From: Acidobacteriota bacterium
GTDB taxonomy: Bacteria; Acidobacteriota; UBA6911; RPQK01; JAJDTT01
Assembly (NCBI GenBank): GCA_965222655.1
Contig: CBDCUP010000010.1
Location: 372,848 to 436,847, forward strand
DNA length: 64,000 nucleotides
Direction: 5' to 3'
Part shown: positions 35,353-48,308 of the stretch, piece by piece
Position numbering within the stretch: position 1 is the first letter of the stretch
How the letters are laid out: the number at the start of each line of letters is the position of its first letter
Program-made: the position numbers and the translations under genes
The notes under the pieces: model-generated
Told to the model about the DNA's origin: nothing
Database searches by the model: none
The model's input: only the letters and a program-made list of their open reading frames with translations

Positions 35353-36679
35353 ATGATTGATAACAAAACTATCCTGATTACCGGAGGTACGGGATCATTC
35401 GGCCGGAAATTCGTAGAGGTCGCTTTAGCCCGGTATCAACCGAAGAGATTGATCGTCTTCAGCCGAGACGAGCTCAAGCAGCACGACATGAGGCTCCAGT
35501 TCAACGATCCCCGTCTCGACTTTTTCCTGGGTGACGTCCGAGAGGTGAGGCGACTCGCCAGGGCCTTCGGAGCGGGGGTGGATGTTGTCCTCCACGCCGC
35601 TGCATTGAAGCAGGTGCCCGCCTGCGAGTACAACCCTTTCGAGGCCGTCAAAACCAACGTCCTGGGCGCAAAAAACGGGTCATCCGGTAAATGGGGAGGT
35701 GGGGACGTGGTTGGCACCTTCCGGATCCTAAATCTGCTCCCCGTTCGCTTGTCCATATAGTCGGCTGCAGTAGCAGAGGCCGTGGGAACTGTGGAAAACT
35801 CCGAGCGACATCGAAGCGGGCCAGCAAGCCCGTGATACGGAGTTTTCCAAGCGCTGTGCGAACGGTGGAAAAACAACTGCGAGCACTTGCCAGTTCTCCT
35901 CCAGAACTAGTTGTTTTTCCACGGTTTGCATAGTGCGGCAGTTTCCATGGCCTGCCTTTGACTGGCGGCACCTCCCCATTTACCGGATGAACCCAAAAAA
36001 CGTTGTCGATGCTGCTATCGATTGCTCCGTACCCAAGGTGATCGCTCTGAGTACTGACAAGGCGGTAAACCCGATCAACCTGTACGGGGCTACCAAGCTG
36101 TGTGCCGAAAAGCTGCTGGTCCAGGGCAACTCCTATGCTGGGGGAGAGGGATCCAGATTCAGCTGCGTTCGCTATGGGAACGTGCTGGGAAGTCGTGGCA
36201 GCGTCCTCCCTATCTTCCTGGCCCAGCGAAGTCGCGGAACGATCACTCTGACTGACCCCAGGATGACCCGCTTCTGGATCACCCTGGAGGAAGCCGTCGA
36301 GTTCGTGATCCGATGCACTCAGGTGATGCAGGGTGGTGAGGTCTTTGTCCCTCGTATTCCCAGCATGACGGTGTCGGATATGGCAACCGCACTCGCACCC
36401 GATTGTCTGATTAAGATAACCGGTATCCGACCCGGCGAGAAACTCAATGAGACCCTGGTTTCATGTGACGAAGCCCGTCGCACCCTGGCCCTGCCCGAGA
36501 TGTTCATCATCAAGCCGGAGCACCACCCCTGGGGCCACCTGGATTGGGATGGCGACACCATGCCCGAGGGATTCGAGTTCGCCAGTAACTCCAATGATCG
36601 CTGGCTCAAGCCCGAGGACCTTTTGCGTCTGGTAGGAAAAGATGAGGAAGAACTCAAACTTAGCTCTGCATGGGGGTGA
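35353..36679 (+). pseudogene. pseB: UDP-GlcNAc 4,6-dehydratase (inverting), interrupted by 317-bp MITE
   Basis: 35353-35676 + 36002-36679 = 333-aa [79 protein letters not shown]. Confidence 0.92.
35677..35993. mobile_element. 317-bp MITE, copy 1
   Basis: 25-bp TIR gggtcatccggtaaatggggaggtg / cacctccccatttaccggatgaacc (1 mismatch); 8-bp TSD caaaaaac (35669-35676, 35994-36001). Confidence 0.95.
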
Positions 36680-37946
36680 GCCTGTCCGCCAAACGGTTCT
36701 CCCCTACGGGACACACAGCATCGACGAGAGCGACATAGAGTCGGTCGTAGAGGTCCTTCGGTCAGGCTGGCTGACCACCGGACCCAAGGTTAGCGAATTC
36801 GAGCAGACCTTTGCCGAGTTTGTTCATGCGCCGCACGCCCTCAGTGTCAGCAGTGGGACCGCCGGCCTGCACGCCGCGATGTACGCCTTGGAAATCGGCC
36901 CCGGAGATGAAGTCATCGTTCCGGCGCTGACCTTTGCTGCTACCGCAAATGCTGTCGTCTACCAGGGGGGAACGCCGGTCTTCACCGATGTCGACCCCAG
37001 GACCCTGCTCCTGGATCCGCTTCAAGTCGAGAGGAACCTGACGTCGAGAACCAAGGCGATTGTGGGAGTGGACTATGCGGGCCAACCTTGCGACTACAGT
37101 GCCTTGCAGGATCTGGCCGAGCGTGAGGGTCTAGGTCTGGTTGCCGATGCCTGTCATTCATTGGGAGCTCGAGACCTCGGTCGACCAGTGGGAAGCCTCA
37201 GTCACCTCTCTGTCTTCAGTATGCACCCCGTCAAATCCATCACCTCAGCCGAGGGCGGAGTGGTCAGCACCTTCGACCCCGCCCTGGCCAACCGAATCAG
37301 GCTGTTTCGAAACCATGGGCTCAGCAAGGATCATCGTCAGCGGAACGAAGAAGGCTCCTGGTTCTACGAGATCAGTGACCTGGGCTACAACTATCGATTG
37401 AGCGACCTTCAGTGTGCCCTGGCGAAGAGTCAGCTTCGCAAACTACCCTCCTGGTTGGAACGAAGGAGATCCATTGCAAAGCTCTACGACTCGGCCCTGG
37501 CAGGTTGCGGCCAGGTTGTGCCCGTTCAGACCAGAGCCGGCGTCTCGCATGCACGCCATCTCTACGTAATCAGGCTGAGACTCGACCGTCTGAAAGTAGA
37601 CAGAACGGAGATATTCAAAGCTCTCCAGCACGAAGGAATCGGGGTCAACGTTCACTATATTCCGGTGCATTTGCATCCCTTCTACCGTCGTGTGTTGCGC
37701 ACTGGATCCGGACTCTGTCCAGTCGCCGAAACCGCCTACCAGGAGATCCTTTCCCTCCCGATCTTTCCGGCGATGACAGACCAGGATGTCGACGACGTAA
37801 TCCAGGCCCTCTTCAAGGTACTGAACGCCTATTCTCGGGACCGTTTCCAGCAGCTGAGTAAGAGCTTCGGGAGGGGCGACTCGAATCCTTCCCGCCCCTT
37901 CTCTCGGGATACGAGCAGGGCGGAGCGGATCCGAATAGGGTCCTAG
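36642..37946 (+). CDS. pseC: DegT/DnrJ/EryC1/StrS aminotransferase (PseC-type)
   Basis: LPYGTHSIDESDI, GWLTTGPKV, ADACHSLG, FSMHPVKSITSAEGG, LGYNYRLSDLQCAL, GVNVHYIPVHLHPFY. Confidence 0.88.
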   Translation: MRKNSNLALHGGEPVRQTVLPYGTHSIDESDIESVVEVLRSGWLTTGPKVSEFEQTFAEFVHAPHALSVSSGTAGLHAAMYALEIGPGDEVIVPALTFAATANAVVYQGGTPVFTDVDPRTLLLDPLQVERNLTSRTKAIVGVDYAGQPCDYSALQDLAEREGLGLVADACHSLGARDLGRPVGSLSHLSVFSMHPVKSITSAEGGVVSTFDPALANRIRLFRNHGLSKDHRQRNEEGSWFYEISDLGYNYRLSDLQCALAKSQLRKLPSWLERRRSIAKLYDSALAGCGQVVPVQTRAGVSHARHLYVIRLRLDRLKVDRTEIFKALQHEGIGVNVHYIPVHLHPFYRRVLRTGSGLCPVAETAYQEILSLPIFPAMTDQDVDDVIQALFKVLNAYSRDRFQQLSKSFGRGDSNPSRPFSRDTSRAERIRIGS

Positions 37947-37993
37947 CAGCCTGTCGGACTTAACTTACAGGCGTTTCTGAAATTTAAGTTTAA

Positions 37994-46584: not shown

Positions 46585-46636
46585 ACATCGCCTCGGCAGC
46601 GCGCTAGGCGGGAGGCGAGCCAGGAGGCTCAACACG

Positions 46637-48308
46637 ATGCTCTACAAGAAAATAGACTTCGAATGCGAGTGCGCAATCGAACTTTTTAGGGTCATCCGGT
46701 AAATGGGGAGGTGGGGACGTGGTTGGCACCTTCCGGATCCCAAATCTGCTCCCCGTTCGCTTGTCCATATAGTCGGCTGCAGTAGCAGAGGCCGTGGGAA
46801 CTGTGGAAAACTCCGAGCGACATCGAACCGGGCCAGCAAGCCCGTGATACGGAGTTTTCCAAGCGCTGTGCGAACGGTGGAAAAACAACTGCGAGCACTT
46901 GCCAGTTCTCCTCTAGAACTACTTGTTTTTCCACGGTTTGCATAGTGCGGCAGTTTCCATGGCCTGCCTTTGACTGGCGGCACCTCCCCATTTACCGGAT
47001 GAACCACTTTTTACCGCTTGCAACTACCACTGTGACTACTGCAGCGGCCCGCGAGCCAAGAAGCTGGTGCGACGGGGTCGGACCCCGGAGGACGTCGATC
47101 AAGTGCTTCGCTTCTTCAATGACTCTGGAAAGAAGTGGCTGATTGGAATGTCGGGGGGAGAGCCGACGGTTCATCCCTTCTTCGGCGACCTGGTCAGTGG
47201 TCTGAACAAAAAACACGCGTTCTACTTTTTCACGAACCTCACTTTCGACGTCGAATCGTTCATGAAACTGGTGTCCGCAGATCAGGTCCAGTACATGAAA
47301 ACATCCCTACATCCCGAAGCCGACGTCGAAACCTTCCTGGAGAAATACGAGCTTCTCTTCGGGTTCGGCTACAACCCGATCCTGATCATGGTATCTGCCC
47401 CCGATACCTTCGACCGGATCAGTCATGTCGCTGATTTCTGCCGGGACCGCCAATACCCTTTCACCCTCTCCGTCATGGAGGGGCCCTACCAGGACAAAAA
47501 CTATCCCAACGACTACAGCGAGCCAGAGGAGCGCTTCATCGAGGAGCACACGGCCGAGGCAGGAAACCTGATCCGGCTATTTTCGAAGACTGCAGGCGGA
47601 CTGAACACCTTGGGACTCTCCTGTCCTGCCGGCCATCAGAGCTTTGTCCTGGATCTGGAGAGCGGCAACGTGTTCAGCTGCGAATCGGTCAACCACATCC
47701 ATGGGAACATCTACGAGGGAACCTTCTCTCCAAGCTCCCAGGACATCACCTGCCCGGCCGTCAATGGCTGTGTGGGCTACGACCGCTCGCCCCTATTGCC
47801 CGGAGCCTACAGGGATTTCTTTACCGAAGGCTGGAACTACTGGCACCTGAAAGACGTCAAGAGCGAACCCGATTACCCCAAGAATCTTCATCAAACCATC
47901 CAGGCCAATCAGAAGGCCTCGGGAGAGATGATCGAGACTGCCCTGGACGCAATTCATCAGCGGATCTCGGGCAACGACACACTGTTTTGGGGCGCGGGCA
48001 TCTACGGAGCAAAAGTTCTCTACAACTTCCACAAGAAATTCCCCGACGCATCTGACGGGAACTCTGCCGGCAGTGTCATCGGCTTCATCGACTCACTGAA
48101 GGACCGACGGAAGACTACGGTTCTTGGACTGCCGGTCTACAGTCCCCAGGACGGAATCGTCAACCGCGCCAAGAAGATTCTGATCACCTCCTATGCCTTC
48201 GAGCGGGACATTCTCGAGGTCGCCAAGAATCTCGGGGTGAAGTCGGAGGTGATCGCCTTGCATCGGGACATCCTGAACTCGATTGGCATCCGCTATGCCA
48301 TCTTCTAA
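46637..48308 (+). pseudogene. Radical SAM protein with C-terminal Rossmann-like domain, interrupted by 317-bp MITE
   Basis: 46637-46688 + 47014-48308 = 448-aa ORF: MLYKKIDFECECAIELFTACNYHCDYC (CxxxCxxC), SGGEPT, FTNL, SLH; C-terminal FWGAGIYG...IGFIDS. Confidence 0.85.
46689..47005. mobile_element. 317-bp MITE, copy 2
   Basis: Same TIRs as copy 1; 8-bp TSD acttttta (46681-46688, 47006-47013); 4 substitutions versus copy 1. Confidence 0.95.

Follow-up and report, generated by a model that had tools for sequence, protein, structure and literature searches.

The window analysed here, a stretch of 64,000 nucleotides from an Acidobacteriota bacterium (assembly GCA_965222655.1, contig CBDCUP010000010.1, positions 372,848 to 436,847), carries a flagellin-glycosylation gene cluster in which pseB and a radical SAM gene are each interrupted by a copy of the same 317-bp miniature inverted-repeat transposable element (MITE). 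The cluster recurs with an identical gene order in four contigs from relatives (L018-L021): DUF8042 protein, Maf, PseB, PseC, a NeuB/PseI-like synthase–cytidylyltransferase fusion, class-III aminotransferase, PseG-like protein, GT2 glycosyltransferase, radical SAM protein, ATP-grasp protein and GH57. Maf (MptE-like), FliD, FliS and flagellin adjoin the pse genes. PseC scores 448.5 bits against TIGR03588 (cut-off 423.5); PseG, PseI and PseF score under their cut-offs, so that pseudaminic acid is not established as the exact sugar.

Two copies of one MITE interrupt pseB and a radical SAM gene

The copies in pseB (copy A) and in the radical SAM gene (copy B) share one orientation and differ from each other at element positions 53, 140, 226 and 234 (Table 1). 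Each starts with GGGTCATCCGGTAAATGGGGAGGTG and ends with the reverse complement of GGTTCATCCGGTAAATGGGGAGGTG, the two forming 25-bp terminal inverted repeats (TIRs) that match at 24 of 25 positions, with a mismatch at position 3. The window contains four occurrences of a 22-nt core of the TIR, where 100 shuffles predict 0.00, and a search of the window with up to three mismatches returned nothing beyond the MITE's own four ends. The element has no transposase open reading frame (ORF): its sole ORFs are spurious, 80-99 aa long and without a family match. An Rfam scan of the window matched a group II intron alone and no family in the MITE, and a search in and around copy A gave neither promoter-like nor terminator-like sites.

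Removing in silico the element and one copy of its target-site duplication (TSD), that is 325 bp, produced an uninterrupted ORF at both sites. The restored PseB is 333 aa long and scores 453.8 bits against TIGR03589 (cut-off 407.75); the restored radical SAM protein has 448 aa, with PF04055 and the CNYHCDYC motif. As the genes stand, the frame of the pseB 5' fragment runs 28 codons into the MITE and then stops, and the largest pseB frame 3' of the MITE lacks the N-terminal nucleotide-binding region. The radical SAM gene offers no in-frame start codon between copy B and the cysteine motif. PseB would therefore be truncated beyond about residue 106 and the radical SAM gene cut ahead of its Fe-S cysteine motif; since each insertion truncates its host gene, both are expected to be null alleles, and for annotation the two are pseudogenes interrupted by a mobile element. 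Recomputation bore out the coordinates, the orientation, the four differences, the 25-bp TIRs and the 8-bp TSDs that the initial annotation had given for the two copies. Its statements that removal of 325 bp restores a full ORF and that no transposase of the window has matching ends held as well, the former for both PseB (TIGR03589) and the radical SAM protein, the latter by comparison of ends and by the TIR search.

A homology search with the restored PseB recovered full-length orthologues of 333 aa, 92% and 89% identical. Alignments of the window with its relatives end precisely at both elements, the flanks overlapping by the 8-bp target, and both orthologous positions are empty in the four syntenic contigs, each with a single unduplicated octamer. 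In L021, the closest relative, these octamers are CAAAGAAC at the pseB site and ACTCTTTA at the radical SAM site. The empty orthologous sites make an assembly artefact very unlikely.

When the TSDs of the window are set against L021 (10317-10325 and 17717-17727), the window octamers are more homopolymeric; at each site a single synonymous substitution separates the two (CAAAGAAC to CAAAAAAC; ACTCTTTA to ACTTTTTA). Either chance or a preference for runs of A or T could be behind this.

An ISL3-family partner of the MITE

Remnants of a transposase gene adjoin MITE-like ends at two loci. In L015, a slightly degenerate end sequence is followed by an inward open frame that ends in …NKIKVLKRRAYGFRDMDYFKLNLYFIHEDLAT and a stop, and the remnant peptide scores above cut-off over the final 22 positions of Pfam DDE_Tnp_ISL3. 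In L024, the same transposase C-terminus adjoins an end that is 24/25 identical to the right TIR of the MITE. A query made of the real C-terminal 54 residues, padded with X to 248 aa, recovered 402-aa proteins with exactly that C-terminus; a 33-aa remnant extended by guessed ISL3 residues had yielded nothing longer than 76 aa.

The corresponding insertion sequence (IS) is 1716 bp long, has a single ORF for the 402-aa transposase and is present in L035, L036 and L037. Its transposase (P0399) scores 293.9 bits against NF033550, the ISL3 equivalog (cut-off 180), 224.6 bits against PF01610 (DDE_Tnp_ISL3) and 47.8 bits against PF13542 (HTH_Tnp_ISL3). The left end of this partner equals the left TIR of the MITE at 25/25 positions, its right end, GGTTCTTCCGGTAAATGGGGAGGTC, matches the right TIR at 22/25, and the transposase ORF terminates on the inner edge of that right end. 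The TSDs are 8 bp long and AT-rich (TGTAATTA, ATTAAATC), and the leader, from the left end to the start codon, spans 484 bp and is highly structured. Aligned with the partner, MITE positions 1-27 match at 100%, positions 93-280 match partner positions 95-282 at 81%, and positions 294-317 match 1693-1716 at 96%, with positions 28-92 unalignable. This collinearity identifies the MITE as an ISL3 leader joined to the right end, with the transposase gene deleted: in the alignment, the left end and about 280 bp of untranslated leader run directly into the right end.

A protein of the same transposase cluster as P0399 (P0555) is encoded on a 4,393,582-bp contig of a relative, the contig that also carries L018. 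That contig thus holds a complete ISL3 element (L038 1517-3232, TSD ATTTATCA) as well as the syntenic glycosylation cluster and a MITE copy (L018 3942-4258, TSD GGAAAAAA). No ISL3 transposase was found in the 64-kb window (tblastn E > 0.4), and viral contigs gave no match to the TIR core. Metagenome contigs of the Joint Genome Institute, scanned for the IS-specific end CCGGTAAATGGGGAGGTCA, gave two matches, both rejected as chance: one lies in a eukaryotic glucosidase, the other in a hisB region.

The MITE is predicted to fold at -171 kcal/mol (z = -10 vs shuffles) into two long internal hairpins nested inside a pairing of both element ends. The hairpin stems are near-invariant between the MITE and the ISL3 leader, with diverged loops and one compensatory pair, a hint that the hairpin arms may be putative binding or regulatory sites of the transposon.

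Abundance and spread of the MITE

Twenty fetched loci, together with earlier ones, yielded 29 distinct full-length copies of the MITE, 93-100% identical. All but one are 97-100% identical, the single variant standing at 93%, and most equal the consensus. Perfect 8-bp TSDs flank 20 of the 29; A+T makes up 76% of the duplicated octamers, against a genomic G+C content of about 57%. Gene callers often annotate a spurious ORF of 83 or 99 aa inside the element; the exact 83-aa consensus product is found on at least 183 public contigs (188 index blocks), and its 90% cluster holds 38 further variants. In a scan of species-representative genomes, the TIR core was found in two metagenome-assembled genomes (MAGs) labelled Acidobacteriota. 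In the short-read MAG JAKZYH01 (Langseth series), many contigs break off about 138 bp into the element, as is typical of a multi-copy repeat.

Plasmid-like contigs with RepA_C, ParA, relaxase/MobC and toxin-antitoxin pairs harbour many of the copies, and two of these MITE-bearing contigs are flagged circular. On one circular contig of 53 kb (L025 9987-11010), two MITEs with 389 bp between them share one TSD, TCATTGTG, on the outside, and the inner flanks of the pair do not match; the single outer TSD indicates that the pair transposed as a unit, as a composite. The copy in L018 lies within an IS4-like element, which L019, a 99.7% identical strain, lacks. Between the window and L018 the MITE is 99% identical, as against just 80-85% for the orthologous genes of the two, which argues for recent horizontal spread of the MITE, plausibly carried by plasmids.

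Probable decay of the flagellin-glycosylation cluster

The cluster is broken in at least five independent ways: by an IS256-family element in maf, by the MITE in pseB, by a nested pair of ISs, by the MITE in the radical SAM gene and by the loss of the ATP-grasp gene. In 4/4 related contigs the ATP-grasp gene lies between the radical SAM and GH57 genes. It is cleanly gone from the window, where no mobile-element scar is visible at the junction (48309-48314). Compared with L021, the genes for flagellin, FlaG, FliD, FliS, PseC, the synthase–cytidylyltransferase fusion, the aminotransferase, the PseG-like protein and GT2 are uninterrupted, and the remaining reading frames of the cluster are still clean. 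An A/T-rich island drawing insertions was considered and rejected, since G+C is flat across the window.

Table 1. Elements, interrupted genes and repeats (window coordinates unless a locus is named; IRL and IRR, left and right inverted repeat of the insertion sequence)
Feature	Position	Strand	Remarks
MITE copy A	35677-35993	+	317 bp; departs from the family consensus by 3 private changes
Left TIR of copy A	35677-35701	+	25/25 identity to the IRL of the 1716-bp ISL3 element
Right TIR of copy A	35969-35993	-	24/25 with the right end in L024; 22/25 with the IRR of the full-length element
TSD of copy A	35669-35676 (left), 35994-36001 (right)		CAAAAAAC
MITE copy B	46689-47005	+	317 bp; 1 difference from the consensus, common to the copies in L030 and L031
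TSD of copy B	46681-46688 (left), 47006-47013 (right)		ACTTTTTA
pseB (UDP-GlcNAc 4,6-dehydratase, inverting)	35353-36679	+	split after about codon 106-108 by copy A
Radical SAM gene	46637-48308	+	interrupted at codon 16/17 by copy B, ahead of the CNYHCDYC cluster motif
Conserved hairpin region	35765-35960 (MITE); L035 2517-3000 (ISL3 leader)
IS256-family element in maf	32163-33899	-	at codon 116; 394-aa transposase 32469-33653; flanked by direct repeat CTCCTCCCAGAG
IS1182-family element in the pseC-pseI spacer	37943-41267	-	19-bp TIR; interrupted by the IS1380-family element
IS1380-family element	37989-39735		nested in the IS1182-family element
Junction of the missing ATP-grasp gene	48309-48314		423-aa gene product; about 1.24 kb missing
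Palindromic repeat, about 190 bp	4705-4894; L018 4490-4644; L019 4475-4645		about 90% identical between window and relatives
Short elements or hairpins	11762-11981, 12089-12271, 27795-27993, 51564-51621		inverted arms of 52, 26, 30 and 24 nt

Other mobile elements and repeats in the window

The group II intron (28078-29795) comprises Rfam domains D1-D4 (28078-28364) and an ORF for a 468-aa reverse transcriptase/maturase (28389-29795). It sits in a 3.65-kb segment of the window between fliS/hyp119 and the DUF8042 gene; a reverse transcriptase/maturase gene is found at the same place in L018 and L019, and none in L021. A further IS, at 19677-22110, has 40-bp inverted ends, 66% G+C and a 720-aa transposase with a DruA-like N-terminal domain (PF14236) and Tn5-type DNA-binding and DDE domains. 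Genes with a DruA domain also lie beside transposases in L018, L032, L033 and L036.

The palindromic repeat of about 190 bp is a second MITE-like sequence, with ends GGGCYCTGTCAA and AATAACTTCGC, and the IS4-like insertion in L018 landed within one of its copies. The four short elements or hairpins listed in Table 1 are probably other small repeat families; the one at 11762-11981 matches L018 7154-7262 at about 83%. Lastly, about six tandem units of 57 bp, 65-91% identical to the reference unit, lie in a minus-strand ORF at 62709-63050.

Discussion

We explain the two interruptions as insertions of an ISL3-derived MITE, mobilised by a transposase from elsewhere, in a cluster under very recent decay, a reading to which we give a probability of roughly 0.87. 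Firstly, a DDE transposase of the ISL3 family, supplied by the chromosome or by a plasmid of the same cell, would bind both 25-bp ends. Secondly, a staggered 8-bp cut in an A/T-rich octamer would be followed by insertion and leave the 8-bp duplication. Thirdly, the first hit would abolish flagellin glycosylation, and later insertions in the cluster would be cost-free and therefore retained, in a genome in which many mobile elements would be in a burst of activity. Indirectly, the empty sites, the composite in L025 and the L018 insertion missing from L019 all point to mobilisation. Several unrelated elements and a deletion are involved, and any lesion of maf or pseB should be disabling; together these suggest accumulation under relaxed constraint. 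The two hits thus most likely reflect very recent decay, and the pathway was most likely not specifically targeted.

The initial annotation had described a recently active, non-autonomous element, mobilised in trans, whose family it did not recognise. Recent activity and lack of autonomy are supported by the missing transposase ORF, by copies that are 93-100% identical and by the empty sites. Mobilisation in trans we infer from an ISL3 partner with the same ends in relatives and none in the window, and the same partner, by sharing both ends and leader, now identifies the family as ISL3-derived. Both of the two hits in one pathway, to which that annotation drew attention, are present, but their significance is weakened by the high copy number and by the other lesions of the cluster. 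It had also reasoned that hundreds of evenly spread copies would make two hits here unremarkable. This applies only in part: the MITE is clearly high-copy, the count being one across the public contigs of the collection. Under a uniform Poisson model, two hits in the cluster of roughly 17 kb would have a probability of about 0.06 with about 100 copies in 4.4 Mb, and of about 0.003 with about 20.

Several points weigh against our reading. The mobilisation of the MITE in trans by an ISL3 transposase is deduced from sequence; the partner is absent from the window, so that its presence in this particular cell is likewise presumed. The sampled partner is not the parent, because the interior of the MITE is just 81% identical to it; it is thus a relative of the parent, and the immediate parent would be another, unsampled ISL3 variant. 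The L024 remnant, unlike the sampled partner, carries a MITE-type right end. Nine of the 29 copies have no matching TSDs; one pair of these is the composite, and the others may stem from recombination between copies. Finally, these data do not separate neutral accumulation from selection for loss.

Such selection is the core of an adaptive explanation, in which the loss or switch-off of flagellin pseudaminic-acid glycosylation was favoured, for example in a host-associated life, and the insertions are the selected mutations. Four of about 11 cluster genes are inactivated, with flagellin, FlaG, FliD, FliS, FlgK and FlgL intact, and the clean state of the remaining frames indicates that the events are recent; one element-bearing MAG comes from the Langseth series, and a Langseth Ridge paper describes sponge grounds. 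However, a single pseB or maf null should suffice, so the extra hits in the haplotype cannot each be adaptive, and the cluster is wholly intact in the relatives. We consider adaptive loss unlikely. A broader scenario would have a plasmid-borne burst of ISL3 and MITE crossing species within one uncultured community, the insertions in the glycosylation cluster being selected during host adaptation because they shed or switch a surface glycan, and not being neutral debris. Genomes with only 80-92% identity between orthologous genes carry MITE copies that are 99-100% identical; taken as a whole, this scenario strikes us as distinctly improbable.

We give little credence to the MITE being a functional genomic module, a regulatory RNA or protein-binding palindrome whose spread is kept by selection, as opposed to a purely parasitic element. 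The very stable fold and the near-invariant stems with diverged loops and a compensatory pair would fit such a module, but the element sits inside coding sequence and destroys genes, and it has neither an Rfam match nor promoter-like or terminator-like sites. Conserved stems are, moreover, equally expected of the element's own transposase-binding or regulatory sites. Another transposase that duplicates 8 bp could have moved the MITE, such as the IS256-family enzyme of the window, encoded 2 kb upstream; the IS256 family makes duplications of 8-9 bp. This candidate was rejected, since its ends (…TTTCTGTAATTTC…) are unlike the MITE TIR. The TIR search left only the MITE's four ends in the window, and it is the ISL3 element that has the 25/25 left TIR and the common leader, which leaves IS256-driven movement a very slight chance. 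An assembly or scaffolding artefact, a collapsed repeat misplaced in the contig, has next to no chance: the element does break contigs in JAKZYH01, but the octamers perfectly duplicated around copies A and B occur just once at the orthologous sites of four other assemblies, the two copies differ by private substitutions of their own, and the flanks rejoin into full-length, in-frame orthologues.

Insertion of an ISL3-derived MITE into a decaying cluster reveals no new mechanism; it is a real but ordinary kind of event. The locus is a clean example of a very recent expansion of MITE and IS, with near-invariant copies, on plasmids, and with the MITE common to genomes that are 8-20% diverged at orthologous genes. 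It also catches a surface-glycosylation pathway in the first stage of decay. In practice, the 317-bp repeat and its 1716-bp ISL3 relative can now be named and masked.

Comparison with known systems

The Chunjie MITE of Geobacter uraniireducens is said to have been recently active and to lie inside a cell-surface polysaccharide cluster, with the operon reportedly left undisrupted. It reportedly belongs to another parent family and has another sequence; in the present window, two coding sequences are broken. The partner element agrees with the ISL3 family (NF033550, PF01610) in its single transposase ORF, its 25-bp ends and its 8-bp duplications, and differs by its long, highly structured leader of 484 bp. 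Typical ISL3 members probably have shorter leaders.

Duplication of 8 bp at A/T-rich targets is an ISL3 trait (PMC11448079), and an ISL3-mobilised MITE is known from Microcystis aeruginosa, 187 nt long, with 8-nt duplications, stem-loops and copies on plasmids (PMC11448079). Like the Microcystis element, the MITE described here is short and non-coding and has TIRs that match ISL3-family transposase genes, in the former case in the same genomes (PMC11448079) and here in those of relatives. The two also have in common 8-nt duplications, stem-loop folds, plasmid copies and insertion within a gene. They differ in host phylum and in sequence, the Microcystis MITE beginning with GGCTCTTCG and the present one with GGGTCATCCGG or GGTTCTTCCGG, and in length, 187 nt versus 317 bp, the present MITE keeping about 280 bp of the parental leader. 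The present element is thus of the same kind as the Microcystis MITE, with a different sequence and in a different host.

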